Shown one piece after another: positions 9,809-55,718 of a DNA stretch of 64,000 nt; within the stretch, counting starts at the first letter, position 1, and each line of letters opens with the position of its first letter. This stretch comes from a virus. The stretch lies in the IMG/VR virus record IMGVR_UViG_3300045988_175722, positions 40,206-104,205 of that record. One strand, given 5' to 3'. Both the position numbers and the translations under genes were made by a program. Under the pieces are notes generated by a model that saw nothing but the letters and a program-made list of their open reading frames with translations, ran no database searches and was not told where the DNA came from.

Positions 9809-9838
9809 CCCCCGTTCCCAGCGATTCCATCGCTGGTC
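9809..9838 (+). repeat. gene-boundary hairpin element copy 1
   Basis: CCCCCGTTCCCAGCGATTCCATCGCTGGTC, 10 nt after the stop at 9799. Confidence 0.85.
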
Positions 9839-9869
9839 AGCAGGCAAAAGCAGCGGCGGGCAATACCCT

Positions 9870-9906
9870 TTTGTCCCCGCCATCCAAAAATTAAGTATTA
9901 ACTTTG
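9870..9906 (+). promoter_or_regulatory. bipartite promoter P1
   Basis: TTTGTCCCC, then a 25-nt gap, then TAACTTTG. It lies 31 nt upstream of the ATG at 9937. Confidence 0.45.
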
Positions 9907-9936
9907 CAAATAGAAAAATAAAGATTTATAGAGAAT

Positions 9937-10407
9937 ATGACAGAATTGGAACAATATGAACTCCTGGGGGAGTTGAAAGACCTTGCAGAATGGATGCAAA
10001 ATAGCGCACCTGGTTTCGATGTAGAGGAGTATAGATCGCTCGAAGAGCAGATAAAGAGTCTGAATCAGGATTCGGGTGATTTCTATGAGGTCATTATTGA
10101 AATCCATTTTAATAATGGCAGATACATCATTCTCCACAATCAAGCCTTTGAGGCTTTGGTGCAGGATTCATATATAGGTGATGAGATTGATGCTACGTCG
10201 AAGGATACGGTGATAGGAGTTACATACACAGACCCAGAGACAGACTATACGCAGATGGTGATTCCTATCAGTTCCATCTGCTACATTTCTGCCTACACCC
10301 AAGAAATCAAGTGGCAGGAGCGATGGGATGCACTGAGCAGAGATAAGAAAGATGACTGCATTGCAGCCTTCGACAAATGGTATTCCAAGAGCCAGCAAGA
10401 GAAATAA
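9937..10407 (+). CDS. hypothetical acidic protein
   Basis: 156-aa ORF lying 31 nt downstream of a TAACTTTG -7 box. Confidence 0.5.
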   Translation: MTELEQYELLGELKDLAEWMQNSAPGFDVEEYRSLEEQIKSLNQDSGDFYEVIIEIHFNNGRYIILHNQAFEALVQDSYIGDEIDATSKDTVIGVTYTDPETDYTQMVIPISSICYISAYTQEIKWQERWDALSRDKKDDCIAAFDKWYSKSQQEK

Positions 10408-10602
10408 GAATTTTTCATTCTTCTAAATAATATATATAATAGTTTTCAATCTTGTTTTATAAGATAGTTTTTATTTATAATGTATTTAGATTACCTAAGC
10501 CCTCCTTCGTTGTGATAACGCGGGAGGCTTCTTTAGTCAAGGTCAAACGTGTAATAATGTAGTTTTTGTATTCTTACAAATAATTGGTTTTGTATAAAGA
10601 AG

Positions 10603-10633
10603 AGGGGCGATTGTCGTGATGACAGTCGCCCCT
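10603..10633. terminator. bidirectional hairpin between convergent genes
   Basis: AGGGGCGATTGTC GTGAT GACAGTCGCCCCT, a 13-bp stem with one mismatch. It is T-rich on both sides and lies 15 nt from the terL stop. Confidence 0.55.
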
Positions 10634-15986: not shown

Positions 15987-16023
15987 TTTGTCCCCGTCTT
16001 AGGGCAAAAATATTCTACCTTTG
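15987..16023 (+). promoter_or_regulatory. bipartite promoter P2
   Basis: TTTGTCCCC, then a 25-nt gap after the TTTG, then TACCTTTG. It lies 47 nt upstream of the ATG at 16070. Confidence 0.45.
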
Positions 16024-17364: not shown

Positions 17365-17919
17365 ATGCCTATCAGAACCCAACCCATCAAGTCGCCTTTT
17401 GCCCCCTTAAAAGAGGTGGCAGGTGTATATCTGAAGCAAGCCCTTCTTGATATAGAAGTTAACTTCAATACCCAGAAGATTTATCCGGTAGAGGTATATC
17501 GTGGCTACGAGAAGGTGAATAAATATCGTGAGGAACACGGCATGTGGTACTCTACGGGTGAAGGCAAGAAATCCTTTGAGGGTACGGTATATCAGGCTGA
17601 TGAAAAGACGGGTAATCTGATGGTAGGAATCCGTTATAACGATTATCTCCGCTATGTGGATATTGGTGTAGGTTTGACGGGTGATCCTCGTGACCCTGCA
17701 GCCCATATCACTGCCGATAAGGTGGACCGCTCGAAAAAAGCCAAGTTCAAAACCCGCTATATCGGCAAGTGGGATAGAAGGGCAGGTAAATCTCACCGTC
17801 CTGCCATCATGCGAACCGTCCGCAGGTTGAAAACGAGATACGAAAACCATCTTGCCGATTACTACGGCTATCAAGGCTTGTTACAGATAATGAACGCCCT
17901 GGAAGACAAAGGCGATTAA
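17365..17919 (+). CDS. hypothetical protein
   Basis: 184-aa ORF upstream of the tape measure gene. Confidence 0.5.
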   Translation: MPIRTQPIKSPFAPLKEVAGVYLKQALLDIEVNFNTQKIYPVEVYRGYEKVNKYREEHGMWYSTGEGKKSFEGTVYQADEKTGNLMVGIRYNDYLRYVDIGVGLTGDPRDPAAHITADKVDRSKKAKFKTRYIGKWDRRAGKSHRPAIMRTVRRLKTRYENHLADYYGYQGLLQIMNALEDKGD

Positions 17920-17928
17920 CCCATCTCG

Positions 17929-17958
17929 CCCCCGTTCCCGGTGATTCCATCGCCGGTC
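17929..17958 (+). repeat. gene-boundary hairpin element copy 2
   Basis: The stem variant CCGGTGAT/ATCGCCGG has a compensatory A>G with T>C change plus a U-G wobble. It lies between the stop at 17919 and the TMP start. Confidence 0.85.
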
Positions 17959-17996
17959 TCATATCCCCCAAAAATAAACATTAAAAATAAAAAGCA

Positions 17997-24272: not shown

Positions 24273-24377
24273 AAAATATGAAGAACGAGTAAAAAGAATA
24301 AATAGAAAACGATTTTTTGTTGATTGTTAGTTGTTAGTTTTAAGTTTTTATTAGGTTTTTATTAGGTTTTTAGTAAG

Positions 24378-24984: not shown

Positions 24985-25002
24985 GAAAAAATATCCTCTG
25001 CG

Positions 25003-25032
25003 CCCCCGTTCCCAGCGATTCCATCACTGGTT
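25003..25032 (+). repeat. gene-boundary hairpin element copy 3
   Basis: The right arm is ATCACTGG (one mismatch). It sits at the right end of the iteron region. Confidence 0.8.
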
Positions 25033-25161
25033 CACCCTCTCAAACCTATATTAAATGTTAAAAATATAACTTGTTTCAAATATTATATAGCTTACCTATA
25101 CTGTTTCCGATTTATTTTTGTATCTTTGCAGCAGTTTTAGTACAATTAATATATATAAGGT

Positions 25162-26280: not shown

Positions 26281-26285
26281 AAAGC

Positions 26286-26315
26286 GCCCCGTCCCCAGCG
26301 ATTCTATCGCCGGTC
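26286..26315 (+). repeat. gene-boundary hairpin element copy 4
   Basis: The loop is TCT and the right arm is ATCGCCGG. It lies 6 nt after the stop at 26280. Confidence 0.8.
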
Positions 26316-26357
26316 CACAAGCAAAAAAGTTTTTAATACATTTAAAGATTATAGATT

Positions 26358-28377: not shown

Positions 28378-28481
28378 TTCAGATGTGATAGCATTAGCCG
28401 TTAAGGGCGATTATGATTAATAGAACTTCTTATGTCTCTATTTTACGACGGTTTCCAAAATTGCAACTGTCGTAGATGGAG

Positions 28482-28512
28482 CCCCCGTTCCCAGCGATTC
28501 CATCGCTGGTCC
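28482..28512 (+). repeat. gene-boundary hairpin element copy 5
   Basis: Canonical sequence, lying between the stop at 28377 and the ATG at 28551. Confidence 0.85.
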
Positions 28513-29525: not shown

Positions 29526-29562
29526 AAAGCAAAAAGGTAAAAAGCCCCTTAACCCCTTTGCG

Positions 29563-29593
29563 CCCCCGTTCCCAGCGATTCTATCGCTGGTCC
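29563..29593 (+). repeat. gene-boundary hairpin element copy 6
   Basis: The loop is TCT. It follows the stop at 29525. Confidence 0.85.
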
Positions 29594-34214: not shown

Positions 34215-34224
34215 CCCCCTCTCG

Positions 34225-34255
34225 CCCCCGTCCCCAGCGATTCCATCGCTGGTCC
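34225..34255 (+). repeat. gene-boundary hairpin element copy 7
   Basis: CCCCCTCTCGCCCCCGTCCCCAGCGATTCCATCGCTGGTCC, starting just after the capsid-candidate stop. Confidence 0.85.
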
Positions 34256-34931: not shown

Positions 34932-35277
34932 CAGGCGGAACAGATCAGAGCGAAACCGCTTCCGCCTCTGAGCAGCCATCTGAGCCAAGCGAGCAGGTAA
35001 CTCCCACCCAGGAGTCTCCTGCCGCTATCAGCAAAGAAGATCAGACTCCTCCCGAGAATCAGCCTTCTGATGAAGAGCAGCCTTCTACTGAAGAGGAAGT
35101 CGCCCCTATCAAAAAGGTGGCTTCCTCTAGCAAAGGTGGTAAGTAATCGCTCCCCCATCAAACTCCAATGCGTTTCCATTGGCAATTTACTCTATAGATC
35201 AAGAGCCTGGCAGAAAGAAATTTCCTCGCCAGGCTTTTTCGCTTTGTTATCTTAAAAGAACCTCACCCCCTCTCTAG

Positions 35278-35308
35278 CCCCTGTACCCAGCGATTCCATC
35301 GCTGGTCC
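35278..35308 (+). repeat. gene-boundary hairpin element copy 8
   Basis: The 5' flank variant is CCCCTGTACCC. Promoter P4 follows. Confidence 0.8.
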
Positions 35309-35981: not shown

Positions 35982-37088
35982 ATGGAAGCAAAGATAAACC
36001 TCACCATCCCGAAAAGCTGGAATCAATGCACCCCCACCCAGCTAGAGCAGATTGCCCTCATCATGCTAGAGCAGATAGAGAAATCCAAGGTAGACCGCTA
36101 TCACCCCTTCGATATGCAGAAGGTGAAGATAGCTGTCTTCTTTCTCTTTGCCGGGATAAGCATCAACGCCTATCCCGACCCTCGCCAGCCTATCAATGAG
36201 CAGCACTACCTGGTAAGCATAGAGCCGCAGAAGAAGAGCCTCCTAAAGAAGCTCTTCTCCCTCTGCGCCTCCGTTCCCAGCGATTCCATCGCTGGTCCCC
36301 AGTCTTGCAGCCACTTCCCTCTCTATCTTTGGCAGCTCAACTATTGGCTTTCCCCGAAAGCCAAAACCAACGATAAAACCTCCCCCGAGTATATCTCCCA
36401 AGGCGCAGGTCTCCTCGATTGGCTGGATGCGGATAGCGGCAATTTTCTCACCCTTTTTCCCTATCCATCCATCAAGCAGAAATCCAAGTGGTACCATCGC
36501 AGCAAAGCCTTCCAGGGTCCGCACCCAGACCTCGATGGTTTCTCCTGGCAGCAGTACCGCTTCGCCAGCGATATGATGCAAACCTACACCAAGTTAAACA
36601 ATAACCTGGTTAAGATGAAGAAGATGGATAAATTCACCGAGGCGCAGTTGCATCAGCAAGCCGAGAGTGTGCGTAGTGCAAAAAGCATGTTCTTAGCCGT
36701 CATCTTTAACACCACTACGAATTACATCGACTCTACCACTGGCATAAAGAAATACGATTTCCACTATGAGGCAAAACAGCTCACTGCCCATGCCAAGTAT
36801 TTCGTCGATTTCTCCGAAGCCCAGTGGCAAGTAGTTTTATTCTGGTGGACGGGCATCATGCACACCCTGGCTCATCGCTACCCTCATGTGTTCAAGGTGC
36901 AGAAGGTAAACAACAGTAAGCCACAAACTCCGATGGAAATCTACACCGCTACCACCGCCACGATGCAGAAGTATGCCGGCTTAACAGAAGATCAGATCAA
37001 CACCCAATCCTATTCCTTGGTTCTAGAACACTTAGAAAGGTTATCGAAAGAGAATGAGGAAATGGAAAAGATGAGGAGAAGCAAATGA
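35982..37088 (+). CDS. hypothetical protein carrying an in-frame hairpin element
   Basis: 368-aa ORF. Element copy 9 at 36266-36297 is translated as CASVPSDSIAGPQ. Confidence 0.5.
   Translation: MEAKINLTIPKSWNQCTPTQLEQIALIMLEQIEKSKVDRYHPFDMQKVKIAVFFLFAGISINAYPDPRQPINEQHYLVSIEPQKKSLLKKLFSLCASVPSDSIAGPQSCSHFPLYLWQLNYWLSPKAKTNDKTSPEYISQGAGLLDWLDADSGNFLTLFPYPSIKQKSKWYHRSKAFQGPHPDLDGFSWQQYRFASDMMQTYTKLNNNLVKMKKMDKFTEAQLHQQAESVRSAKSMFLAVIFNTTTNYIDSTTGIKKYDFHYEAKQLTAHAKYFVDFSEAQWQVVLFWWTGIMHTLAHRYPHVFKVQKVNNSKPQTPMEIYTATTATMQKYAGLTEDQINTQSYSLVLEHLERLSKENEEMEKMRRSK
36266..36297 (+). repeat. gene-boundary hairpin element copy 9 (inside an ORF)
   Basis: GCCTCCGTTCCCAGCGATTCCATCGCTGGTCC lies within 35982..37088. 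Confidence 0.8.
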
Positions 37089-41002: not shown

Positions 41003-42844
41003 ATGGCAAGCAAAAACAAAAACAGAGTAACCAACTTGCAGCAGTTCCAAAATCGTAGTGAGGAACTGAAAGATGCAGGCTACGTAGCCGTTCGCCCAGA
41101 TGCCTTTACGTCGCCAAAGAACGGCGGCAATAAGGTCTTTTCCTGGAACGGCTACGTTCACAGCATGCTCCTAACCACAGCCGGTATGTCGGCAAGCGGT
41201 GGCGATGCAAGCGGTTCTGCAGCACGTCAGCAAGTCTCAACTATCTTTGCATCGAGTGGCGGCGAGAACCTGGGCAAACCGAAAGGCGTAGGTACCGAAG
41301 GCTTAGGCTTTATGGAATGGGGTATGGCAAACCGACTGCCAAACCTTATCTGGATGCTCTCTCGCATGTCGCCTTTCACCGCAGCAGGAGTAGATTACAT
41401 CAAGAAAATATTGGTAGGTCGCGGTCCCGCAGCCAAGTATCACTACACCCAGTACGTAGGCGGTAACATCACAGAAAAATATATCCCCTACGAGAGTGCC
41501 GGAGTTTTGCTCCGTGGGCAGATAGCCGACCTGAAAGCCCAGGAAGAGGCAGCCGCCGAAGCCAAGCGCCAAAGAGAAGAGCAGCAGAACCGAAACAACC
41601 AGCAGAACCCCAATGAGCAATCTCAGCAGTCAGAGCCACCGTTCCATGCGATTCCATCGCAGGTCTCCTCATCCCCCGAAGAAGAGGAAAGCGAGGAGAT
41701 GAAATCCCTAAAAGAAGCTCTCCAAAAATGGGAAGAAACCAATGCCCAGCTTCGTGATTTCCTAGAAAACAACGACCTGATGCAGACCTTCCTCGACCTG
41801 GCAGGCGATATGGCTTTGATGTCACAATGCTTTGTAGAACTTCAGCTCAACCAGCGTTCCCTCGACGAGAGCGGCAAAGCCGTTCCCACCGCTCAATGGA
41901 CTCCGAAGGTGATCGGCCTAAAGCACCGTAGTATCTTCACCACTCGCCTGGAGCGCATGGATGAGAACTACCGCATCAACTATGCCTACGTGAGCAATCA
42001 ATGGCTCGACCCTACCCAATACGTCGGCGTACAGAAAGAGGAAGACCGCAAGATAGCTGCTATTCCTTATCTCCCTACCACATCGGCAGTAAAGGATTTG
42101 CAGCGCAATATCCGTGAGGCACGTCAGAAGCAGGTAAGCCGCAAGAAACGCCCTACCCGCTTCATTATGTCGCCAAGAGATTTTGGCGGTCCCTATTATG
42201 CCGATGCCCTTTGGCATTCAATCTTTGCCGGTAGCATTTTTGAGTATGCCTTTACTATCGTGGATGACCGCCTTACCCGAAAGCGCAACAGCAATATCAT
42301 CGGTAGAGTTATCTATATCCATCAGGACTACATCAATAAGCTCTATCAGCAGCAGGGCGAACAGAAGAAGAAAACCATCGGTGAGATTCAGATCGAAATC
42401 TTCACCTCTATCAATACCTGGCTCGCCAATCCCGATAATGCAGGTCAGGCGCTCATCTCCTCTGCCTTCACGGGCAGCGACGGAAAGGAGCACAAGGCTT
42501 GGGAAATCGTGGAAATCGAAACCAAGGCAAACGATCAGGCAAATGCCGATAAAACCGAGTTGCAGGAAATAAGCAGCATTATCTTCTTTGCCATGGGTCT
42601 TGATGCAAAGCTCATCGGTAATACTCCTGGCGATACGGCATCATCGGGCGGTACCGACCTGAGAGAACGTTTCCTAGTCAAGCAAATCCAGTTTGCTCCA
42701 TTGCAGCAATTAATGATACGTCCTCTGGAAGTTTTGAGCCGTTTTAACGATTGGGATGAGCACCTGGTATGGCAGATAGATCGAGAGGTATTGACCACCC
42801 TCGACAACTCAAAAACCGGAGTTGCAAAGCAGGGGCAGGAATAG
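41003..42844 (+). CDS. portal-like virion protein (tentative)
   Basis: 613 aa. FMEWGMANRLPNLIWMLSRMSPFTAAGVDYIKKILVGRG recalls N-terminal portal motifs of Bacteroidota phages, from memory only. It has an acidic/Gln-rich insert carrying degenerate hairpin element copy 10. Confidence 0.4.
   Translation: MASKNKNRVTNLQQFQNRSEELKDAGYVAVRPDAFTSPKNGGNKVFSWNGYVHSMLLTTAGMSASGGDASGSAARQQVSTIFASSGGENLGKPKGVGTEGLGFMEWGMANRLPNLIWMLSRMSPFTAAGVDYIKKILVGRGPAAKYHYTQYVGGNITEKYIPYESAGVLLRGQIADLKAQEEAAAEAKRQREEQQNRNNQQNPNEQSQQSEPPFHAIPSQVSSSPEEEESEEMKSLKEALQKWEETNAQLRDFLENNDLMQTFLDLAGDMALMSQCFVELQLNQRSLDESGKAVPTAQWTPKVIGLKHRSIFTTRLERMDENYRINYAYVSNQWLDPTQYVGVQKEEDRKIAAIPYLPTTSAVKDLQRNIREARQKQVSRKKRPTRFIMSPRDFGGPYYADALWHSIFAGSIFEYAFTIVDDRLTRKRNSNIIGRVIYIHQDYINKLYQQQGEQKKKTIGEIQIEIFTSINTWLANPDNAGQALISSAFTGSDGKEHKAWEIVEIETKANDQANADKTELQEISSIIFFAMGLDAKLIGNTPGDTASSGGTDLRERFLVKQIQFAPLQQLMIRPLEVLSRFNDWDEHLVWQIDREVLTTLDNSKTGVAKQGQE
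41636..41667 (+). repeat. gene-boundary hairpin element copy 10 (degenerate, inside an ORF)
   Basis: CCACCGTTCCATGCGATTCCATCGCAGGTC. An A-T to T-A swap keeps the stem paired. Confidence 0.6.
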
Positions 42845-42882
42845 CCACTATGGTGCGATAACCGCTCCATAGCCCCCTCTCG

Positions 42883-42913
42883 CCCCCGTCCCCAGCGATT
42901 CCATCGCTGGTCC
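42883..42913 (+). repeat. gene-boundary hairpin element copy 11
   Basis: Canonical sequence with the CCCCCTCTCG leader. It follows the stop at 42844. Confidence 0.85.
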
Positions 42914-44321: not shown

Positions 44322-45413
44322 ATGGAAAATTTATCTAAAGAACAGATTGTTCAGATTCTTGCCCCTGTCATTGGAGCCAGAATGCTTACCGCCGATCAGC
44401 GAGATGCTTTCGAGCAGGGTCTTTCCATTTTGGAAAGTACCACCAAGGCAAAATCATTTGTAAAAGACTCACGCCGATTTAAAGACTACCATCGCCGTGT
44501 GCGTCAGATGATAACTTATCTGCAAACCCTCGATGCCAGCAGCGCAGTTTCTGCCACCGATAAGCGACGTGTGGGCAGACCGACAAAAGAGGAACAGGCA
44601 GCCTATGCCGAGCTCCAAAAGCAGAAAGCCCTGGAAGAGGCAAAGCAATCCCTCTTCCCTAACATGAAGCCCGACACCACCGTGCAGCCGCTTACTTACA
44701 ATGGTATCGTAGCCAATCCAAACGGCGAGAGCATCGCAGCCACCATGCCAAACCTGATGCAGTTGCGTCCGTTCCTCTCTACCGCTCTTCAAGAGCAGGT
44801 GAACAACGTGCGTGATCTCCGCAGCGAAATGGCGAGCAAAGCAGAGCAGGCTAAGACGATGGCAGAAGCCAACGAGAAAGCTATCTCACAAGGTAAGAGC
44901 GCCATCTACACCGAGGATGAGATTGCCGCTCTCGCCACAAGAGCCGTAGAAATCGAGAGCGATATTCTCCCCGAAATCTTCAAGGCAGTAGATAGAGAGA
45001 TGGGTGAGTGCTACCTGCGACTGAGCGAGAAGACCGGAGACCCTGAGTATATCGCCTATGCAAAGAAGGCCTTCACCATCGACCCTCAGACCCTCCGCAC
45101 CCAGTTTAAGCCATTCTACGAGAAAGCGCAGTCTCGTGACCCTCGTTTCGCCGAGCAGGTAGCCGAGAAGATTGCCAGCGACCGCCCCGAAGTAAAGGCA
45201 GCCCGTGATGCAGCCGCCAAGCACAAGGCAGAAGCCGATGCCCTTATCAAGTACATCATCCGCAAGGATAAACCATCTACCAAGACAAGAGTAAAAGGCA
45301 TCAAGGGCCGTATCGACGATCTCCGCAACAAATACTCCGACGTAGTAACCGAGGAGGAACTAAAAGGCTATGAAGCCATCCTCGCCAAAACAGAAGAGGA
45401 AAGTGCGTCTTAG
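44322..45413 (+). CDS. hypothetical protein, helical/coiled-coil-like
   Basis: 363-aa ORF, Ala/Glu/Lys-rich. Confidence 0.55.
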   Translation: MENLSKEQIVQILAPVIGARMLTADQRDAFEQGLSILESTTKAKSFVKDSRRFKDYHRRVRQMITYLQTLDASSAVSATDKRRVGRPTKEEQAAYAELQKQKALEEAKQSLFPNMKPDTTVQPLTYNGIVANPNGESIAATMPNLMQLRPFLSTALQEQVNNVRDLRSEMASKAEQAKTMAEANEKAISQGKSAIYTEDEIAALATRAVEIESDILPEIFKAVDREMGECYLRLSEKTGDPEYIAYAKKAFTIDPQTLRTQFKPFYEKAQSRDPRFAEQVAEKIASDRPEVKAARDAAAKHKAEADALIKYIIRKDKPSTKTRVKGIKGRIDDLRNKYSDVVTEEELKGYEAILAKTEEESAS

Positions 45414-45450
45414 AAATACAAAAGGCAAGAAGCGTCTTGCTAGCTTGCAC

Positions 45451-45487
45451 CACCGTTCCCAGCGATTCCATCGCTGGGTTCTTTTTT
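45451..45487 (+). terminator. gene-boundary hairpin element copy 12, terminator-type variant
   Basis: The stem is extended to CCCAGCGAT/ATCGCTGGG and followed by TTCTTTTTT. Confidence 0.7.
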
Positions 45488-45521
45488 GTCCCCCCTAATA
45501 AGAAAAAATCTCCTATCTTTG
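45485..45521 (+). promoter_or_regulatory. bipartite promoter P5
   Basis: TTTGTCCCCCC, then a 25-nt gap after the TTTG, then TATCTTTG. It is fused to the T-run of hairpin element copy 12. Confidence 0.45.
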
Positions 45522-46266: not shown

Positions 46267-49161
46267 ATGAACTCACATCTCGCAATATTAATCAACGACA
46301 AGCCGGTAGCCCTGCCCGATGATTTCTCCATCGATATAGAGGATCAGAACCCCGTGTTCAACGATACGGAGATGTTCTCCTATCCTTTCTCTATTCCCCT
46401 GGATGGCAATCGCTGGCTTGTCAAGAACATAGAAGACGTGCATGCTGCCGTGAGAGCCGTGAACATGGAGCATTTGCCTACCCGAATCCATGCCGACGGA
46501 CTTCCCTTCCGCAGCGGTACCCTGGTGATGCAGGACGATGAGGAGATAACCAACTCGCTTTCGATGAATATCGATGCCAGCACGCAGAGTTTCAGCGACC
46601 TGATCAGCAACCTGCAATGCCGGGATATTCCGGTCAAAGACCAGCTTATCATCGGCGAGAAGATAGGCAATGTAAGGGTGGATATTTGGAGCAATCCGAC
46701 CATCCAGGTGCATCTTCACAGCGACGGCAAGAAGGGCGGCAAGAATGCCACCGCTACCGTGAAAGCCACTCCTCTCAGGGCAAGTAAAGTGCTTGAACCG
46801 CAGGCACTCGGTTTCTCCTATCCTGGCTCTTGCAGGGAATACACATATAATACAAGTGACCACCATATCGGCGATGCCTACAACAAAGGCACGAAGTCAT
46901 ACGCTGCCAGCAAGGTGAACGTCAATATTCCGCAGGAAATTTCGCAGGGAAGCTATATCAATACCTCGGCCGCCTATGGCGAAACCGATAACGCAGGCAG
47001 GGCTACCGCATATTGCAATGCCCGCATTTGCTACAGACATCATGCGCTGGAAGATGATGGCAGTACGTCGAGCGACACCATCAAGATGGATAAGTGTACA
47101 TGGATAGATGAGGATCTTTATCCTTACTGGGTATTGGATGCCAAGCGTCCGCAATCGGGTATCTGCTTCTACGTGCTCTATTTCCTGGATTGCCTCTTCG
47201 CTCATCTGGGCGTAAGTTTCGACAAAAGAGCTTTGCTAAAGATAGAAGACTTGAAGCATCTCTGTTTCTTCACCACTGTTTGCGGCTACGATACCATCGA
47301 ACACCCACATCACGGCGATTATTACGAAGCGAAGGAAATTCAGGATGCCAAGGATATTGTCAACGACAAAAAGTACAAAAAAGGCAGCAATCCAGAGGCG
47401 GAGATTATCGCCGAAAAATCGGTAGGAGAAATCAAGACGGGTTTTTTCTCCTCTCAGGAACACATCAATTCCTGGCTCGAAAGCCGCGGTTGCGGCGGTC
47501 AGATTGAGATAACCAAAGCCGAGGATAAGGAGGTGCAGGAACTCGACCTTGCCGTAACGGAAAATGGCGTGACGACTACCCGTCATATTCAGGTGGGAGA
47601 GGTGGTTACTTTTCCTCCTGGCAAGGGAATGAAGGTAACGGGTATTACCATTGAATCGAATATTGAGAAATTCGAGGTACAGGGCAATGTGCTCTATATG
47701 GTAGCCAATAGCGACAACTTCCCCGACGAGAGTGTAAGTACCGTTATTTCTTCGCTCGAGAATGCGTTTGGTATCAAGTTCTCTTACGATTACGAACAGA
47801 AGAAAGTAACCGCTTATCTCACTCGTGATATTCTCCGCAGAAGCGGTGATACGCCAAGAAATTTCCACGCCAACATCCACTCGATGGTGCCCATGAGCGA
47901 GAAGATTACGGGTGTGCGTATGCGATATTCTGCCGAAGCCGACAAAAAAGAGCAGCAGGGCTACACCAAGCGCAACGCCCAGGGAGATTATCTTGATTCC
48001 GGCTACGACACCGATTATAACTATACGGAATACCCTCTGCCCGATGGCGACTCGAGCAAATCGGGTAGAACCATTACCAACATGAAATACGTAGAATTTT
48101 TCCACAACATCAGTAACCCTGGTGATAGAAATTGCTACATCGACCGCGCCACTGGCAATGCTTATCGCGTAAAGGTAAACAAGGAAGCAAGGACTTCCAA
48201 TGAGCTGAAACCTGTATTGTTCGAGGTGGGTCAGTTCAAGGGTGTTGAGTATGGGGATTGCCGTGAAGAGAATGAGGATTTCATCCACGACATCAGTATA
48301 GATTTCACGCCAGTACCCTTCAATGACGTAAACTACTTCAAGGAGGTGGAAGCCGCTTATGGTATTCACTCCGCAAAGGGCGATAACGGCGAAGATTATC
48401 TTGCCAATATCAGGGGGGTGCAGCAGCCTATTCTCTGCGCTTATGTAGATGAGGATATGGAGCACGAGTTTGTAGAGCAGGAAATCAACCAGGTTATCTC
48501 TTCTGCCTTCTGCAATTACTATATGAAGCAGAAACTGAAGCTCGTGGAAAGCTATGACCCGTCGGGTACCGATGATGGCAATTCTCCTTTGCAGGATAAA
48601 TCCCGTTGGGGCTTTGCGGTAGCCTTGATGCGAGGCGGTGGCAGCGATGCCACCCTGCAACCTTACGATTACAACTACGACCATTTTGGTACATCCAAAT
48701 GGCGCACCAATGCCGGTGAGTATGCCCTAGCCTGCGATTCACTGGACATGATGGGCAATGTGTTTGATTATAACGGTGTGCAGGAAGGTGTAGGCACTGG
48801 AGAGCGTTTCTCGCTAAAAATACGAGCTTTCAAGGAGCCATCGTGGATGAATGATCCGAAATACAAGGATATAGTGGTCTGCAATGAAGATGAGATAGAT
48901 GAGAACGGGGAGGTAGTAACTAAAATCCGCTCCCGTGGTCTCTTTGATACCTTCATTCTCCCCTACGCCTATTTCCTCTTGAATAGGAAGAAATTCAAAA
49001 TAAGATGCACCACCACGGTAGCCCAGGTTGCTGATATACCAAACCACTGGCAGGAATGGTGGAACATAGGCGGCATGAAGTGCCTCATTGACAAGGTAAA
49101 CACCACCATCGATGCCAAGACGGGCATGGGCGAAGTAGAGCTAACGGTATATGCCCTCTAA
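46267..49161 (+). CDS. large virion protein (baseplate or tail-associated, unassigned)
   Basis: 964-aa ORF. No catalytic motif recognised. Confidence 0.6.
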   Translation: MNSHLAILINDKPVALPDDFSIDIEDQNPVFNDTEMFSYPFSIPLDGNRWLVKNIEDVHAAVRAVNMEHLPTRIHADGLPFRSGTLVMQDDEEITNSLSMNIDASTQSFSDLISNLQCRDIPVKDQLIIGEKIGNVRVDIWSNPTIQVHLHSDGKKGGKNATATVKATPLRASKVLEPQALGFSYPGSCREYTYNTSDHHIGDAYNKGTKSYAASKVNVNIPQEISQGSYINTSAAYGETDNAGRATAYCNARICYRHHALEDDGSTSSDTIKMDKCTWIDEDLYPYWVLDAKRPQSGICFYVLYFLDCLFAHLGVSFDKRALLKIEDLKHLCFFTTVCGYDTIEHPHHGDYYEAKEIQDAKDIVNDKKYKKGSNPEAEIIAEKSVGEIKTGFFSSQEHINSWLESRGCGGQIEITKAEDKEVQELDLAVTENGVTTTRHIQVGEVVTFPPGKGMKVTGITIESNIEKFEVQGNVLYMVANSDNFPDESVSTVISSLENAFGIKFSYDYEQKKVTAYLTRDILRRSGDTPRNFHANIHSMVPMSEKITGVRMRYSAEADKKEQQGYTKRNAQGDYLDSGYDTDYNYTEYPLPDGDSSKSGRTITNMKYVEFFHNISNPGDRNCYIDRATGNAYRVKVNKEARTSNELKPVLFEVGQFKGVEYGDCREENEDFIHDISIDFTPVPFNDVNYFKEVEAAYGIHSAKGDNGEDYLANIRGVQQPILCAYVDEDMEHEFVEQEINQVISSAFCNYYMKQKLKLVESYDPSGTDDGNSPLQDKSRWGFAVALMRGGGSDATLQPYDYNYDHFGTSKWRTNAGEYALACDSLDMMGNVFDYNGVQEGVGTGERFSLKIRAFKEPSWMNDPKYKDIVVCNEDEIDENGEVVTKIRSRGLFDTFILPYAYFLLNRKKFKIRCTTTVAQVADIPNHWQEWWNIGGMKCLIDKVNTTIDAKTGMGEVELTVYAL

Positions 49162-49171
49162 CTCCCTCTCG

Positions 49172-49202
49172 CCCCCGTTCCCAGCGATTCCACCGCTGGT
49201 CC
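49172..49202 (+). repeat. gene-boundary hairpin element copy 13
   Basis: The right arm is ACCGCTGG. It lies 11 nt after the stop at 49161. Confidence 0.8.
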
Positions 49203-49232: not shown

Positions 49233-50441
49233 ATGGATAGAAAAATAATAATCACCGGAACCGGCATCCTTTCCGCTATGGGCAGGAATACAAAGGAAGT
49301 AGCCATGAATCTTTATCATGGCAAATGCGGCTTGCATCATGATGAATGCCGTGATAACTACATCTCCGATTTATGCGGCGACGTGTGTAGCTACGAAAAA
49401 GATTACCATGATATTCTTACTCATGCACAATGCGAATGTATGCCTGTACACGGTTTCGACGTGCTCGATGCAGTATTCGAGGCGCTGAAGGAAGCAAAGG
49501 TTAGTAAAGAGTTCTTGGAAAACCATAACGTTTCCATCGTCGTAAGCAACGATTCTGAATGCTACGAGAGTAGGTGTGTAGTGAATCATGTAGATGAGGA
49601 CAACTTCAATAATTCCTTGCCGGTAAGTACCCTCTTCCGCTCACTTAATTCCACCATCAGCATGAACCTGGCTACCATCCTCGGTATTCATGGCTTATCA
49701 CTTACTGTAAGCGCAGCTTGTGCAGGAGGTGGCCACGCCATTGGTTTGGCGAAGATGCTTCTCGATAGCAAACAGACCGAAATGGTAATTGTGGTTGGCG
49801 CGCAGGAATACGAGTCTCAATATTGCATGGAAGCTTTCGATGCCCTGGGTGTCTTCTCACCCGATAAAGTGCAGCCATTTGGTAAAGGCAGAAATGGACT
49901 CGCACCATCGGGCGGTGCAGCCTGCATCATCCTCGAACCATCGGATAGCCTTCGCCTGAAAGAAGAGAAAGTGCATTCCTTCGCTTCTCTTTCCGGCTAT
50001 AGCTTTTCAACAACCGGAAAAGCTATCACTACTCCTGATGCCTATCAGGAAGAAGTATCTATGGTCAATGCCATCGAGAACGCGGGTCTGGATGAAGGCA
50101 TGATAGATGTGGTTCTCGCCCACGCCACGGGTACCCCAATGGGTGATGCAGCGGAAGCGGAAGCCATCGGAAAGATTTTCTCTATCTGTCCGAATGTGGT
50201 AGCCACGAAGGGCATGACAGGCCACGAGTGCTGGATGGCAGGCGTATCGCAAGCCGTGCAAGCCGTAATCATGTTCACCTATGGCCGTCTGTTTCATGCA
50301 GCCACTACCGAGGAGAATGCCTTCCCGGAATTGAACCTGGTGATGCGCCCTAAGTATTACTCACCTCATCATATCCTCTGCAATGCCTTCGGTTTTGGTG
50401 GTACCAACGCATCCTTTGTCGTCTCAAAGGTTCCTCGTTAG
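49233..50441 (+). CDS. beta-ketoacyl-ACP synthase (KAS I/II type)
   Basis: Active-site Cys in SAACAGGGHAIG, His in HATGTPMGD, Lys/His in ATKGMTGHECW, and C-terminal NAFGFGGTNASFVV. Confidence 0.85.
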   Translation: MDRKIIITGTGILSAMGRNTKEVAMNLYHGKCGLHHDECRDNYISDLCGDVCSYEKDYHDILTHAQCECMPVHGFDVLDAVFEALKEAKVSKEFLENHNVSIVVSNDSECYESRCVVNHVDEDNFNNSLPVSTLFRSLNSTISMNLATILGIHGLSLTVSAACAGGGHAIGLAKMLLDSKQTEMVIVVGAQEYESQYCMEAFDALGVFSPDKVQPFGKGRNGLAPSGGAACIILEPSDSLRLKEEKVHSFASLSGYSFSTTGKAITTPDAYQEEVSMVNAIENAGLDEGMIDVVLAHATGTPMGDAAEAEAIGKIFSICPNVVATKGMTGHECWMAGVSQAVQAVIMFTYGRLFHAATTEENAFPELNLVMRPKYYSPHHILCNAFGFGGTNASFVVSKVPR

Positions 50442-50450
50442 TCTTTCCCG

Positions 50451-50525
50451 CAAAGTCTTCCGTTAGGCGTTCCAACAAAGTCTTCCGTTAGGCGTTCCAA
50501 CAAAGTCTTCCGTTAGGCGTTCCGG
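50451..50525 (+). repeat. 25-bp tandem repeat x3
   Basis: CAAAGTCTTCCGTTAGGCGTTCCAA repeated three times. The third copy runs into IR-B. Confidence 0.9.
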
Positions 50526-50695
50526 CGGATTTGAAATCCGCCGTCAAAAAAGGTCCCAACCTATAAAACCGGGGGATTTGCAATCCCCCAATCATTATCA
50601 GCACCCTTGCTTGCTGCGGATTTCAAATCCGCAGGGCATAAAAAGGTTGGGTCATTTCTTAACGGCGGATTTCAAATCCGCCGAGCGCCTAGCGG
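50501..50695. repeat. composite palindrome-cluster repeat IR-B (inverted copy of IR-A)
   Basis: Palindromes at 50524, 50571 (GGGGGATTTGCAATCCCCC), 50614 and 50664. It aligns with the reverse complement of 40685-40878. Confidence 0.8.
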
Positions 50696-50751
50696 GATAA
50701 AGCGCCTAGCAGGATAAAGCGCCTAGCGGGATCGAGCACCTAGCGGAAGAT
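50684..50751 (+). repeat. 17-bp tandem repeat x4
   Basis: AGCGCCTAGCGGGATAA, AGCGCCTAGCAGGATAA, AGCGCCTAGCGGGATCG, AGCACCTAGCGGAAGAT. Confidence 0.85.
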
Positions 50752-50804: not shown

Positions 50805-51056
50805 ATGAAGCAAGAAGAAATAACCCCTCGCATCATCGGCATCGTGAATAGTTTAAAAACCTCGTGGGTCAACCACGAGGTTACGCCTTCTTCTAATCTC
50901 CGAGACGAAATCCAGCTTGAATCCATCGATATGCTCGATATGATTCAGCAGGTGGAAATGATGTTCCATATCAGAATCACACCCGAGGAAGCCGCGAAAT
51001 GTAAGCTCGTCTCCGATGTAATCAACCTGGTTTCTATTAAACAAAAGCAAAAGTAA
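50805..51056 (+). CDS. acyl carrier protein
   Basis: 83 aa. LESIDMLDMIQQVEMMFHIRITPEE fits the ACP DSL-helix II pattern, with Ser in ESID as the candidate phosphopantetheine site. Confidence 0.7.
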   Translation: MKQEEITPRIIGIVNSLKTSWVNHEVTPSSNLRDEIQLESIDMLDMIQQVEMMFHIRITPEEAAKCKLVSDVINLVSIKQKQK

Positions 51057-51057
51057 T

Positions 51058-52125: not shown

Positions 52126-52141
52126 CTAATAGTCAGTCCTG

Positions 52142-52181
52142 CCCCCGTTCCCAGCGATTCCATCGCTGGGTTCTTTTTTTT
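52142..52181 (+). terminator. gene-boundary hairpin element copy 14, terminator-type variant
   Basis: Extended stem CCCAGCGAT/ATCGCTGGG followed by TTCTTTTTTTT. Confidence 0.7.
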
Positions 52182-52215
52182 GTCCCACCCATTTCCTCCT
52201 TTTCTCGTACCTTTG
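52179..52215 (+). promoter_or_regulatory. bipartite promoter P6
   Basis: TTTGTCCC, then a 25-nt gap, then TACCTTTG. It is fused to the T-run of hairpin element copy 14. Confidence 0.45.
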
Positions 52216-52283
52216 CATTATCACATTCAAAGAAGAAGTATCGCATACACAAACATCAAAAAATAATAATAAAGGAAAGATAA

Positions 52284-54440
52284 ATGGCAACAGAAGCAAA
52301 AACCACCAACTATTGGATTTCGAGCAATGCACTCTATATCCAGCTCAACGCCATGGGTGAACCCGACTACACGCAATGCAGTGTGGCCACGGGTGCATCC
52401 ATCCTCTGCTATATGCAGGGCGTAAAAGGCTTGGAGTATGATGCAGGGCACAACTACCAGCGGTGGCCTCTTGCTGCATACCCTTCCATCTTCCCCGATA
52501 GCGAAAAGAAATATGTGTATGCTGCCATCCCCCGTACCCGTCTCTCGGAAGGCGACCAGGCTACTATCGTGTTCCCTGGGCAGCGTATCGACCTCTATGG
52601 CAAGGCGATCATCTCAACCAAAAACGAAGATGGTACCACATCCGAAACCGAGGGCGAACAGATAGGTAACGAGGGCTTTTATTACATCTTCCTGCAAGGT
52701 ATCATATCGGAAGTAAAGACTGATACCGACGGCGTGACCCGCAAGCGTGAGTGGAGCCAGCAGATGAACTTCGGTTCCCTGGCCACCGATGAAGCCTTGG
52801 CTTCGGGCGGTGAAGGCGCATGGTGGAAATATAACTCTGCCTCTGATACCGTCACCTTCTTAAAAACCATTCAGAAGGCGAATTTCGAGGAACTGGCTGC
52901 GAAATCAGCCACCCTCACTAAGCTCATCCTCGGCAATAGCCCACTCACGGGCATTGCCAATGCTGAAACTCTGGATGATAACAACGAGCGCATCGTAACG
53001 CCGCTCTATCTGGGTTTGTTCGGCGAGAAGCATTTTCTGGCCAAAGACAAGGATGATACCGCCCATGGCACCATCACCTTTGAGAAGGTGCAGAAGTTTC
53101 TCAGCGGTTTGGTAGCCCAGAAGGAATCGAGTTTTAAAGGTGGTGCAACCTTCGGCGATTTCGTCAAGGGCATCTTAATCGGCAGCGGTGCCAATATTGA
53201 TGCCCTGGGCAATGCTGAGTTTCAGAGTATCACGGCACGCAGTTCGATTATCGCCAAGGAACTCATCGTAAACCGCCAGACCGCCATGGAAAGCAACTTT
53301 GTCTTCACAGAAAGCGGATTGGTGGAAAAAGTGATTGAGCATGCTCCGGAAGCGGAAGGCGGAAATCCTACCTACACCCTGCAGCTTCAGAAACGATGGG
53401 AGAATGATTTCACGGCATTCAAGGAAAATGACGTGGTGCTCGCCTCCGTCAACACCCTGATGCAGGACGGCAAATACTACGATATCTGGTTCCGCATCCT
53501 CGATGTAAACACGGTGAAGAATACCATCGATGTGGTGTGCTATCCAGATAATGAGGTGCCGAGCCAGAAGAACTATCCGCCCTGCGAACTGGCACGACTG
53601 ATACGATGGGGTAACGCCACTGATACTGCCAGACAAAGTTGCTGGTATATTTCATCGGAAAACGGCGTATTGGTATGGCTCGATCACGTAACCAAGCCTA
53701 TCATTGATATATCGAATTACTCCGTGGCTATCGGTAGAATGCCTGACGAACTGCGGAATTTCGTGTTCAAGGACTATCCTATCAACGATAGAGACAGCGC
53801 CTTCTACGCCAAATACCTTGCCGTGCAGAAGCAGGTGCAGGTGGATTTCCAGGGCAACGTGATACAGAAGGTGGTAGATAGAGGTATCTGGTCGCTCACC
53901 GTAGCCGAGAGCAGCAACCCCTACCGCTGTACTAATATCGAGGTACACGATGTGTGGCACAATGGCTGCAAATGGCGCTGCCTGAAGGATAAGACGGCAA
54001 ACAAGCCACAATATGCCAGTACTGACTGGGCGTTTGTGGAAGGCAACCCTGAGTTTACCTGCAAGATTTTTGGTGCTGAAGATATTTTCGATGGCGATTA
54101 TATCTCGCAGCCCGATGCCAACGGCAAATATCCGGTGTTTACCACACTGAGTGTAAAAGGTTATCTTTACAACGAGGACGTGACTGCCCACATCAAGGAA
54201 CGCCATGTAACATGGACCCGTGACAGCGGCAATGTGGCAGAGGATAACACCTGGGCAGCCATACATGCCAACTCCGGCTTTTCGGTGCCGCTCACCTGGG
54301 AAGACCTGGGCAAGAACGCATCCGAACGCTTCAGCTGTAAGTTTAAGGTAACGGTAATCATCATCGATGAGACCACTGAAACCAACGCCACGGACACCAA
54401 CCGCACCAAGCAGGCAAGCGATGAACTGACATTTAATTAA
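52284..54440 (+). CDS. tail fibre or baseplate-like protein
   Basis: 718-aa ORF within a run of large late genes. Confidence 0.5.
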   Translation: MATEAKTTNYWISSNALYIQLNAMGEPDYTQCSVATGASILCYMQGVKGLEYDAGHNYQRWPLAAYPSIFPDSEKKYVYAAIPRTRLSEGDQATIVFPGQRIDLYGKAIISTKNEDGTTSETEGEQIGNEGFYYIFLQGIISEVKTDTDGVTRKREWSQQMNFGSLATDEALASGGEGAWWKYNSASDTVTFLKTIQKANFEELAAKSATLTKLILGNSPLTGIANAETLDDNNERIVTPLYLGLFGEKHFLAKDKDDTAHGTITFEKVQKFLSGLVAQKESSFKGGATFGDFVKGILIGSGANIDALGNAEFQSITARSSIIAKELIVNRQTAMESNFVFTESGLVEKVIEHAPEAEGGNPTYTLQLQKRWENDFTAFKENDVVLASVNTLMQDGKYYDIWFRILDVNTVKNTIDVVCYPDNEVPSQKNYPPCELARLIRWGNATDTARQSCWYISSENGVLVWLDHVTKPIIDISNYSVAIGRMPDELRNFVFKDYPINDRDSAFYAKYLAVQKQVQVDFQGNVIQKVVDRGIWSLTVAESSNPYRCTNIEVHDVWHNGCKWRCLKDKTANKPQYASTDWAFVEGNPEFTCKIFGAEDIFDGDYISQPDANGKYPVFTTLSVKGYLYNEDVTAHIKERHVTWTRDSGNVAEDNTWAAIHANSGFSVPLTWEDLGKNASERFSCKFKVTVIIIDETTETNATDTNRTKQASDELTFN

Positions 54441-54458
54441 AAATAAAAAGTAAGAATC

Positions 54459-55685
54459 ATGATTATTTCAAAGACAACCAAACTCGACATCCAGCATGAA
54501 CCGCTAGACGTGAGTTGCAACATCGTCGCCCACGGCGGTATTCCCGACCGGCAGGTGTTTGATAGTGCCAGCGGCGGTTATACTCCCGACTATTCGGTAG
54601 ATGCTCCGCTCTGTCTCTATCCGCAGTGCCGAGCCTTCGGTTCCAACGAGAGTACGCCGGATGGCGGTATCGTTAACAGTGACGCAAAGAACTTTTCTTT
54701 TGCCTGGTATGAGCTTGTGTTCGATAAGGCGAAAAATAAGTACGTGCGTGGCGAAGCCCTTAAAAGCAGTGCTTCCTACACTGTGGTAGAAACATCAGCC
54801 GATGGACTGATTCGAGGCATGCTGCTGGTACGCAAGAATGCCCAGCCGAACAATCCGATCCGTCTGGAGTTTGAAGCCAATTACACCGACAAGGCAAACC
54901 GCGTACTCCACTATCTGGGGCAGAAGAACGTAACCTGCGATGATATGGAGGCTGCCACTCCAGTGATGCACCTTACGCCTACATCGTCTATCTTCAATCC
55001 TCTGAAGGAAAATTCAAAGGTGACTTTTGATGTATTGATTACCGACGGCAACAGCAATATCACTAACAATAAAAATGTGCTTATCAAGTGGTACCGCAAG
55101 GTGAACGTGAACGGCACATCTTACGATTTGCAGGAGGTGAAGGCTAGCGGCATTGACGATGTAGAAGTTCTTGAACTCTCTACCAAAACCGTTACCATCG
55201 ACGGCAAGGACGTAAGTTCGCCGGGCAGCAAGCTCACCATCGACCGCAGTCTGATAGGCGAGGAGATACAGTATGTGTGCAAGGCAATACGCCGTCCTAC
55301 CCTGTCAAAATCAGATGATTTCACCGATCGAGATCCATCGCAGACCGTGGGTGTGCGCTGGCAACTTCCAGCCATCAAGGTGACAACCTACGGCATGATG
55401 GACACCGCCGACGAGCAGCAGGAGACTATCAATCCTAGCTTCGATATTCGTGACGTGCAGACGCAGGAAGTATATGAAAACTGGGCTGACTTCTACAACA
55501 TCTCCTGGCAGGTGAAGAATCCGGGCGAAATCGCCTTCAAGGAAGTTTCTACCGAAGCCAACCCTTCTATTCCGTTTATAGCGGGCATGGGGGTGCAGCT
55601 GGGCGTAGAGCCAAAGGGACCGAAGAAACTGGTTACTGCAGGCGGCAAGCAAATGACGATAGACGGCAAGTTCCTGGTAGTATAA
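54459..55685 (+). CDS. hypothetical tail-module protein
   Basis: 408-aa ORF. Confidence 0.55.
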   Translation: MIISKTTKLDIQHEPLDVSCNIVAHGGIPDRQVFDSASGGYTPDYSVDAPLCLYPQCRAFGSNESTPDGGIVNSDAKNFSFAWYELVFDKAKNKYVRGEALKSSASYTVVETSADGLIRGMLLVRKNAQPNNPIRLEFEANYTDKANRVLHYLGQKNVTCDDMEAATPVMHLTPTSSIFNPLKENSKVTFDVLITDGNSNITNNKNVLIKWYRKVNVNGTSYDLQEVKASGIDDVEVLELSTKTVTIDGKDVSSPGSKLTIDRSLIGEEIQYVCKAIRRPTLSKSDDFTDRDPSQTVGVRWQLPAIKVTTYGMMDTADEQQETINPSFDIRDVQTQEVYENWADFYNISWQVKNPGEIAFKEVSTEANPSIPFIAGMGVQLGVEPKGPKKLVTAGGKQMTIDGKFLVV

Positions 55686-55687
55686 AG

Positions 55688-55718
55688 CCCCCGTCCCCAG
55701 CGATTCTATCGCTGGTCC
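55688..55718 (+). repeat. gene-boundary hairpin element copy 15
   Basis: The loop is TCT. It lies 3 nt after the stop at 55685. Confidence 0.85.

Follow-up and report, generated by a model that had tools for sequence, protein, structure and literature searches.

Hairpins repeated between genes in the direction of transcription are known from phages, where the promoter-stem-loop modules of T4-like phages and the RNase III sites of T7 punctuate long transcripts. On bacterial chromosomes, short palindromes are described as repetitive extragenic palindromic (REP) elements. Tagged REPs lie downstream of open reading frames (ORFs), between unidirectional or convergent genes, and occur also as in-frame intragenic units and as inverted dimers (PMC3733652). 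One superfamily of these, marked by a CGTC tag and including the Rickettsia palindromic elements (RPEs), displays 8-9-bp stems, 3-nt tails and no dedicated transposase and is present in Bacteroidetes; its loop is 4-5 nt long, its stem starts with A-T, its tail consensus is CCA, and the tag variants TGTC and CCTC are allowed, CGTT being unlisted (PMC3733652). Here, we analyzed a 64,000-nt stretch of a viral contig (IMG/VR record IMGVR_UViG_3300045988_175722, positions 40,206 to 104,205; hereafter the window), in which a short hairpin behind a C-rich leader is repeated 15 times. Sequence comparison identifies this element as a small palindromic repeat of REP type that belongs to the host, Segatella copri. 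An earlier note on this DNA had treated it as a phage signal; as a repeat of the S. copri chromosome, it is not a phage-specific system, and what is unusual about it is its dense, one-directional adoption by phages and the conservation of its nucleotides inside ORFs.

Fifteen Copies of a Tagged Hairpin on One Strand

Searching the window for the core CCCAGCGATTCCATCGCTGG with at most 3 mismatches yielded 15 sites, 8 of them exact and all on the + strand, which is the orientation of the flanking genes (Table 1); these are the 15 copies that the earlier note had listed. By chance none would be expected, 100 dinucleotide-preserving shuffles giving 0 matches to the core. Two additional minus-strand matches are the palindrome reading of copies 45458 and 52150 (copies are named by the site of their core). 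Alignment of the window copies defines the conserved unit GCCCCCGTY-C-CCAGCGAT-TCY-ATCGCTGG-TCC. A covariance model built from the 15 copies and run with filters off recovered the same 15 at 49-69 bits, and its next match reached only 11 bits, indicating that no diverged copies in the window were overlooked.

In the element, a CCGTY tag that stays unpaired precedes a stem of 8 bp, which is closed by a UCY loop of 3 nt and followed by a UC(C) tail; C-rich 9-mers often lie upstream. The RNA hairpin folds at -11.9 kcal/mol with its C-rich flanks unpaired (CCCCYTYKC-GCCCCCGTYCC), the C-rich leader measuring ~25-30 nt. Placement at gene ends, as first proposed, holds for 10 of the 15 copies, in which 1-37 nt separate the stop codon from the unit. 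It does not hold for copies 36276 and 41644, which are located within ORFs 35982-37088 and 41003-42844, where translation reads through each in a different frame, nor for copy 25011, 729 nt past the preceding stop; for copies 28490 and 35286 this distance is 103 and 130 nt. On average, the window has 1 copy every 4.3 kb. All copies fall between 9.8 and 55.7 kb, with none in the block of small + strand genes at 1-9.8 kb, in the minus-strand block at 10.6-15.9 kb or at 55.7-64 kb.

The Element Is a Repeat of the Segatella copri Chromosome

The exact 20-mer core was found in more than 120 bacterial-genome stretches, nearly all of them from Segatella (Prevotella) copri or unnamed Prevotella. The complete chromosome NZ_CP152484.1 carries at least 9 separate element sites, the host copy number per genome being a lower bound. 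Two matches in Planctomycetota bins have no leader, and their number equals the chance prediction for a 20-mer in 596 Gb. Among the contigs in the metagenome bins, some small ones are clearly phage. Contigs from a bin labelled Lachnospiraceae (L152, L159, L188, L199, L209 and L227) and contigs labelled ‘bacterium’ (L163 and L168) carry the full element in an S. copri-type context, and look misbinned. The neighbors in the host include core genes: the element stands between trpD and trpC, inside the trp operon, and between rlmH and uvrA, as well as beside genes for a phosphotransferase system IIC subunit, a TonB-dependent receptor, a rhamnulokinase, a rhamnogalacturonidase and a hybrid histidine kinase. 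Several of the features by which REPs are recognized are found here, namely a short palindrome, many dispersed copies, a position behind ORFs between unidirectional or convergent genes, and inverted dimers.

We then counted host contexts after removal of duplicates. Between genes of the same direction, 51 copies are co-oriented with transcription and 6 are opposed when all host stretches are considered, and 21 versus 1 on large chromosomal contigs; convergent gene pairs hold 36 copies in all stretches and 11 on the large contigs, divergent pairs 1 and 0, respectively. About 93% of the host copies are extragenic. Host copies thus sit on the 3′ side of genes and point in the direction of transcription. 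A search of host genomes, proposed beforehand as a check for a generic repeat lying at random positions and orientations, thus did reveal a host repeat, but one whose placement and orientation are not random. On NZ_CP152484.1, the strand of a copy is unrelated to its position on the chromosome, so that replication direction is not the organizing factor.

The usual host layout is a stop codon, then an array of (G)GTAAAAAG 8-9-mers, then AGAGCCTTAACCCCTTTGC, then the unit, and the next start codon often follows 35-40 nt past the hairpin, which leaves no space for a promoter. A canonical terminator stands behind the element in 1 of the 51 same-direction copies and in at least 11 of the 36 convergent ones, suggesting that the element is either intercistronic with read-through or part of a 3′ untranslated region (UTR) that ends at a separate terminator. 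None of 41 host chromosomal copies has a T-run behind the hairpin. Inverted dimers spaced by at most 250 bp number 7 tag-to-tag and 7 tail-to-tail pairs in 120 host stretches, and no transposase gene flanked by inverted copies (a REPtron) was found in these stretches. Extra copies in the 8-kb bins around ascertained sites give a rough host density of ~1 per 47 kb, a biased estimate.

In S. copri intergenic regions (for example, L119, L129, L133 and L156), two further repeats lie beside the element. One is the (G)GTAAAAAG 8-9-mer array, which provides stop codons in several frames and is found in phages also (window positions 29540-29561), where it substitutes for copy 49180 in the relatives L047 and L063. 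The other is palindromic and terminator-like, AAAAAGAGC(A)CCTAGC...GCTAGGCTCTTTTT. There is also a symmetric, double-tagged variant of the element, CCCCCGTTCCCAGCGAT-TCC-ATCGCTGGGAACGGGGG, in host stretches L155 (7899-7929) and L226 (6759-6789) and in phage loci L001 (9012-9042) and L096 (404-434); here, a mirror image of tag and leader stands on the 3′ side, giving a potential 17-bp stem. Searches of the literature with the element sequence, for REPs of P. copri and for REPs common to phages and their hosts returned nothing specific. Mimicry of a clustered regularly interspaced short palindromic repeat (CRISPR) or of a solitary repeat of this kind was considered and rejected, as neither host nor phage copies are regularly spaced.

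Phages Carry Their Own Sub-population of Copies, Mostly in One Direction

The exact 20-mer is also present in more than 116 stretches of IMG/VR contigs (56-110 kb), and 66 of these contigs have proteins in common with the window. Among 216 non-redundant copies of this phage family, 108 are co-oriented with both flanking genes and 3 are opposed to both, while 24 follow the upstream gene only and 6 the downstream gene only. Their median distance from the upstream stop is 29.5 nt, and a T-run is present in 11 of the 216. Orientation is strictly one-directional in 69 of 71 multi-copy phage loci, the two exceptions being the symmetric double-tagged variant, and true inverted dimers are absent from the phage loci. 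In many copies, the stop codon of the upstream gene is located at a fixed offset within the C-rich leader of the repeat (for example, GGT-TAA-CCCCCTCTC-GCCCCCGTC), and at the fixed positions -16 and -6 relative to the tag, a stop triplet is overrepresented.

Phage and host copies were then compared outside the hairpin. A CTCT-type leader is found in 66 of 228 phage copies versus 2 of 42 host copies, and the A-rich array in 26 of 228 versus 32 of 42. Since leader and array differ in this way, the part common to both is the 27-nt tag and hairpin, and the phage copies form a sub-population of their own. The tag reads CGTT in 181 of 228 phage and 32 of 42 host copies, and CGTC in 24 of 228 and 10 of 42, respectively.

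The element is retained at orthologous sites in relatives of 72-90% identity. Clean insertion boundaries or target duplications were considered and rejected: the site of copy 49180, the one polymorphic site, shows in the relatives substitution by another repeat rather than a clean insertion. A second, unrelated group of phages or mobile elements (L055, L061 and L114; IMG/VR contigs 172382, 183438 and 169638) has one copy directly behind the terminase stop codon. Its genes encode a P22-like portal and a polyvalent protein of 3469 aa that combines domains of a C5 methylase, a PBECR5 nuclease and an ADP-ribosyltransferase. The 3469-aa ORF of L114 had been a candidate phage RNA polymerase or sigma factor, which was rejected upon its identification as this polyvalent protein of an unrelated element.

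The Hairpin Appears to Be Under Selection on the Sense Strand

The earlier description of stem variation as partly compensatory was borne out, both in the window, where copy 17937 has an A-U pair changed to G-C (together with a U.G wobble) and copy 41644 an A-U pair changed to U-A, and in the covariation across relatives that had been suggested as a check: in 114 distinct family copies, 99.5% of the stem positions pair and 6 copies have double compensatory changes. The stem, the CCGT tag and the loop are nearly invariant across the family. The three mismatches in the window are all A.C on the + strand, which had hinted at an RNA made from the minus strand; this idea was dropped, as the family mismatches on the + strand comprise 16 G.U versus 10 A.C.

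The best evidence comes from the copies inside ORFs. For copy 41644, which never fits the search pattern, so that its relatives were not retrieved via this copy, three variants are seen in relatives, CCAUGCGAU/AUCGCAGG, CCCUGCGAU/AUCGCAGG and UCUGCGGU/AUCGCAGG. All are paired, the last with two G.U pairs that exist on the + strand only and would be A.C on the other strand, and the peptide encoded varies among PPFHAIPSQV, PPFPAISSQV and SPFSAVQSQV. In the case of copy 36276, 19 of the 20 core bases are kept at the same position, third codon positions included, in relatives whose flanks are 77-90% identical; several of these have a TCT loop and were therefore not retrieved via copy 36276. That pairing and bases are kept within ORFs while the peptide shifts argues for selection at the level of the nucleic acid, on the sense strand, rather than on the protein.

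Promoter-Like Motifs Adjoin Several Copies

In the window, a promoter-like motif consisting of TTTGTCCC(C), 21 nt and TAyCTTTG stands in a fixed 29-nt register ahead of six + strand genes or operons (Table 1). Its TAnnTTTG part matches the Bacteroides -7 box, and the gap between TTTG and this box is longer than usual for Bacteroides promoters. The motif lies behind four copies (9817, 35286, 45458 and 52150) at +8 to +47 nt, and copy 25011 has a -7 box at +83; a TAnnTTTG box is thus found 37-83 nt downstream of five copies. Since these copies precede promoter-like motifs, several copies appear to be located at the ends of transcription units. The remaining window copies lie between cistrons, 26-53 nt from the next ATG, with no promoter-like sequence in between. 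The standard Bacteroides-type promoter pattern was not found within or after the element, the -7 boxes present being part of the separate motif downstream of five copies.

As noted before, copies 45458 and 52150 are the only ones in the window with a 9-bp stem and a T-run, and they are the top two terminator-like matches on the + strand between 40 and 58 kb. What had been taken for a property of these copies, the T-run, comes from outside, because the T-rich 5′ end of the promoter-like motif adjoins the hairpin.

A Proposed Gene-End Hairpin, Probably Mostly Read Through

Based on these results, we propose that the element is a transcribed gene-end hairpin that is mostly read through and serves as a barrier to decay or as a weak, possibly factor-dependent attenuator, a reading to which we give a probability of roughly 0.55. 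According to this model, the element would be transcribed within the mRNA at the end of a cistron or transcription unit, and the hairpin (~-12 kcal/mol) would form between single-stranded C-rich flanks. RNA polymerase would usually pass through, and the hairpin would punctuate the operon, either by blocking 3′-to-5′ decay of the mRNA or by attenuating transcription weakly, perhaps with the help of a factor, such that the relative amounts of upstream and downstream message are set. At copies 45458 and 52150, the hairpin and the adjoining T-rich promoter start would together make up a full intrinsic terminator followed by a promoter. In the least certain step of the model, a sequence-specific host factor, which could be either the protein that spreads the repeat or an RNA binder, would recognize tag, stem and loop; the near-invariance of these three parts suggests such recognition. 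The element is not a strong terminator. Of the roles put forward earlier for the hairpin, the attenuator and the RNA stability or processing element survive, both of them classical proposals for REPs.

Several points weigh against this model. We infer transcription, read-through and an effect at the mRNA level, all three, from sequence. The family mismatches give no clear + strand asymmetry (G.U 16 vs. A.C 10), and the stem is nearly invariant, which a purely structural role would not need. Where a host 3′ UTR already runs up to a strong terminator, a barrier to decay would be superfluous, so that the copies in the host may be selfish or neutral. Within two ORFs, neither such a barrier nor an attenuator has an obvious benefit, and the per-genome copy number in the host is only a lower bound.

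The alternative that survives best is that of a selfish repeat, similar to a REP or a miniature inverted-repeat transposable element, which would be moved in trans by a host enzyme, enter phage DNA at infection and be tolerated chiefly at sites directly past stop codons. This would account for the near-identity of host and phage copies, for their presence in two unrelated phage groups and for the one site that is polymorphic between the element and the A-rich repeat. In-frame intragenic copies occur here as they do among Rickettsia RPEs, and the stop triplets enriched at -16 and -6 look as if the unit brings or targets TAA or TAG. However, the density in the window is ~1 per 4.3 kb, compared with a rough 1 per 47 kb near ascertained host sites; orthologous sites are retained in relatives of 72-90% identity; the compensatory changes in the diverged in-ORF copy point to selection on pairing; and the phage-own CTCT-type leader suggests a long residence in phages rather than repeated invasion. 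In addition, the 120 host stretches contain no transposase gene with flanking inverted copies. We consider a purely selfish repeat possible, although on balance doubtful.

A factor-dependent terminator or attenuator, for example a Rho-dependent one, overlaps with the model that we prefer: the C-rich, G-poor leader would load the factor and the hairpin would pause the polymerase. The C-rich flank is indeed unpaired, five window copies stand ahead of promoters, where insulation of transcription units is expected, and the element is nearly absent from divergent intergenic regions; moreover, REP/BIME elements of E. coli (BIME, bacterial interspersed mosaic element) are reported to attenuate transcription. 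Yet the C-rich tract spans just ~25-30 nt, and copies lie within the trp operon and 26-53 nt before many ATGs with no promoter in between, so that termination cannot be efficient. Copies are, furthermore, conserved inside ORFs, and a canonical terminator follows the element at no fewer than 31% of the convergent host sites (at least 31%). An element dedicated to factor-dependent termination hence seems to us rather improbable.

Still weaker, and in our view very unlikely, is a site acting at the DNA level, on which a host or phage protein would bind the duplex 8-3-8 palindrome as a stoperator-like roadblock, a nucleoid protein or gyrase. The palindrome of 19 bp is perfect and nearly invariant, G.U mismatches do not strongly exceed A.C ones, and E. 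coli REPs bind gyrase and integration host factor. Against this, the tag, the loop and the tail are strictly asymmetric and, in host and phage alike, follow the direction of transcription, and a diverged copy keeps the pairing and not the sequence, which a sequence-specific duplex site would not tolerate. The stoperator-like site envisaged in the earlier note fares no better, given that the same sequence occurs between core host genes, where a phage repressor site is unexpected, and in an unrelated phage group. Finally, a hairpin promoter for an N4-like phage RNA polymerase, also suggested at the outset, or a site for a phage sigma factor, is hardly credible despite the 3-nt loop and the copies placed 26-53 nt upstream of the ATG of many genes, since no RNA polymerase or sigma factor domain (nor a Y1 transposase domain) was detected in ~65 window proteins or in the Pfam results listed for 102 further family proteins, and since the element lies between core host genes, mostly behind genes, convergent pairs included, with a single host copy between divergent genes, the place where promoters occur.

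A bolder extension of the transcribed gene-end hairpin would be that the 27-nt tag and hairpin constitute an “end of gene” code specific to the S. copri lineage, which a dedicated host factor reads in the transcript and which at least two unrelated phage lineages have adopted as their main operon punctuation, under selection even within coding sequence. We regard this as speculative and, as it stands, unlikely; if true, phages would tune their own expression by copying a genomic repeat of their host.

The common 27-nt signature ties an uncultured family of ~100-kb tailed phages and a second phage group to S. copri, and the element points to a family of REP-like repeats, in a major bacterium of the human gut, of which we found no description in the literature searched. 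The unusually strict orientation rule suggests a role at the transcript level and a specific binding factor. Phages that carry such a repeat at ~10 times the host density, in one direction and conserved inside ORFs, provide a natural test of whether REP-type elements function or merely spread. In addition, genetic tools for Segatella are scarce, and the element together with the adjoining promoter motif offers candidate parts for them.

Genetic Context of the Copies in the Window

The window derives from a tailed phage. Among its products are a tape-measure protein of 2091 aa, a head protease of the S49 type, a holin and a GH108 endolysin, several DNA methylases and a primase-like protein carrying a BT4734-type domain; a diversity-generating retroelement is also present. 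ORF 32925-34214, the next after the head protease gene, probably encodes the capsid protein. Neither megablast with 17-25 kb nor tblastn with the putative capsid gene identified a known relative among GenBank phages, and the 43-nt element had a single match there, on an unannotated 10.8-kb fecal phage fragment. The window contains no tRNA and no Rfam match at the gathering threshold, and Rfam searches around one phage copy and one host copy gave noise-level matches only. Sequence searches of the PDB with the putative capsid protein and the product of ORF 44322-45413 were empty or at noise level, a search for related loci based on the reverse transcriptase found nothing, and exact-protein look-ups to extend the window returned short contigs only.

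Several further features were observed away from the copies or around them. The diversity-generating retroelement occupies positions 60362-63389, with the reverse transcriptase at 62151-63389, a bAvd-like protein at 61497-61844, the variable repeat at 60986-61113, at the 3′ end of ORF 60362-61117, and the template repeat at 61993-62120 (91% identity). The 890-bp non-coding region 24273-25161, behind the tape-measure gene and just ahead of the primase-like gene, contains short tandem-repeat arrays at 24340, 24701 and 24835 together with several -7-like boxes, which occur on both strands, and may serve as an origin of replication or as a control region. Two more tandem arrays, at 50436-50523 and 50684-50746, one made of 3.5 units of a 25-mer and the other of 3.7 units of a 17-mer, lie in the non-coding sequence that separates ORFs 49233-50441 and 50805-51056. 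A run of tiny + strand ORFs (30-73 aa; 39026-40800), which has no copy of the element, is found between the C5 methylase gene and ORF 41003-42844.

Table 1. Element copies and promoter-like motifs in the window, with their immediate surroundings
Feature	Coordinates	Strand	Core site	Sequence	Context
Copy 1	9808..9839	+	9817	Exact core	8 nt past stop of ORF 9293-9799; downstream, promoter-like motif: TTTGTCCC at +34, TAACTTTG at +63
Copy 2	17928..17959	+	17937	Stem CCGGUGAU/AUCGCCGG; one compensatory A-U to G-C pair and one U.G wobble	8 nt past stop of ORF 17365-17919; ATG of tape-measure gene 40 nt on
Copy 3	25002..25033	+	25011	One C.A stem mismatch	In 890-bp non-coding stretch behind tape-measure gene; TAnnTTTG box at 83 nt, ahead of primase-like gene
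Copy 4	26285..26316	+	26294	CGTC tag, TCT loop, one A.C mismatch	4 nt past stop of primase-like ORF 25162-26280
Copy 5	28481..28512	+	28490	Exact core	103 nt past stop of ORF 27481-28377; ATG 28551 at 41 nt
Copy 6	29562..29593	+	29571	TCT loop	Host-style upstream context AAAGGTAAAAAGCCCCTTAACCCCTTTGC; next ATG at 26 nt
Copy 7	34224..34255	+	34233	Exact core, CGTC tag	9 nt past stop of ORF 32925-34214
Copy 8	35277..35308	+	35286	Exact core	TTTGTCCC at +47, TATCTTTG at +76: promoter-like motif of endolysin gene 35426-35980
Copy 9	36267..36298	+	36276	Exact core	Within ORF 35982-37088, read as VPSDSIAGP
Copy 10	41635..41666	+	41644	One A-U to U-A swap in stem	Within ORF 41003-42844, read as PPFHAIPSQV
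Copy 11	42882..42913	+	42891	Exact core, CGTC tag	37 nt past stop of ORF 41003-42844; next ATG at 34 nt
Copy 12	45449..45488	+	45458	Exact core; 9-bp stem and UUCUUUUUUG, terminator-like	T-run is start of promoter-like TTTGTCCC (+8), then TATCTTTG (+37)
Copy 13	49171..49202	+	49180	One A.C mismatch	9 nt past stop of ORF 46267-49161; next ATG at 33 nt; in relatives L047 and L063, A-rich GGTAAAAAG-type repeat in place of element
Copy 14	52141..52180	+	52150	Exact core; 9-bp stem and UUCUUUUUUUU, terminator-like	Adjoining promoter-like TTTGTCCC (+10), then TACCTTTG (+39)
Copy 15	55687..55718	+	55696	CGTC tag, TCT loop	1 nt past stop of ORF 54459-55685; next ATG at 53 nt
Promoter-like motif	9870-9906	+		Sequence pattern	
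Promoter-like motif	15987-16023	+		Sequence pattern	
Promoter-like motif	31068-31104	+		Sequence pattern	
Promoter-like motif	35352-35388	+		Sequence pattern	
Promoter-like motif	45485-45521	+		Sequence pattern	
Promoter-like motif	52179-52215	+		Sequence pattern	

Comparison with Known Systems

The element resembles the REP/BIME/REPIN repeats (REPIN, REP doublet forming a hairpin) of Proteobacteria such as E. coli and Pseudomonas in being an imperfect palindrome of 20-40 nt with many copies per host genome, extragenic behind genes, found as singletons and inverted dimers and proposed as a stabilizer or attenuator of transcripts. Unlike these, it belongs to a Bacteroidota host, its tag is CCGTY and not GTAG, its singletons are strongly oriented with transcription, and no REP-associated tyrosine transposase (RAYT) was found within the 120 host stretches and phage proteins scanned; dense one-directional carriage by phages is a further difference, of which we found no report in the literature searched. 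With the CGTC-tagged superfamily it shares an unpaired CGTC-like tag (which reads CGTC in 11-24% of copies and otherwise CGTT), an 8-bp stem, a 3-nt tail, in-frame intragenic units, the lack of an evident dedicated transposase and the presence in Bacteroidetes. It differs by its 3-nt loop (TCC, TCT or TCA), a stem starting with CC, a TCC tail and the 1-2 C residues between tag and stem. Given these differences in loop, stem start and tag, we consider the element REP-like and not a proven member of that superfamily.

Like intrinsic terminators, the element is a G+C-rich hairpin behind genes, and two window copies have a 9-bp stem and a U-run; unlike them, 13 of the 15 window copies and all 41 host chromosomal copies are without a U-run, and copies lie inside operons and ORFs. 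With mycobacteriophage stoperators, it has in common that one short sequence recurs many times along a phage genome, always in the same orientation; stoperators, however, are asymmetric sites for the phage's own repressor, form no hairpin and are not host repeats. Finally, like the T4-like modules and the T7 RNase III sites, it forms repeated hairpins between phage genes in the direction of transcription, but those are phage-specific, whereas the element is a genomic repeat of the host, with a stem far too short for RNase III.

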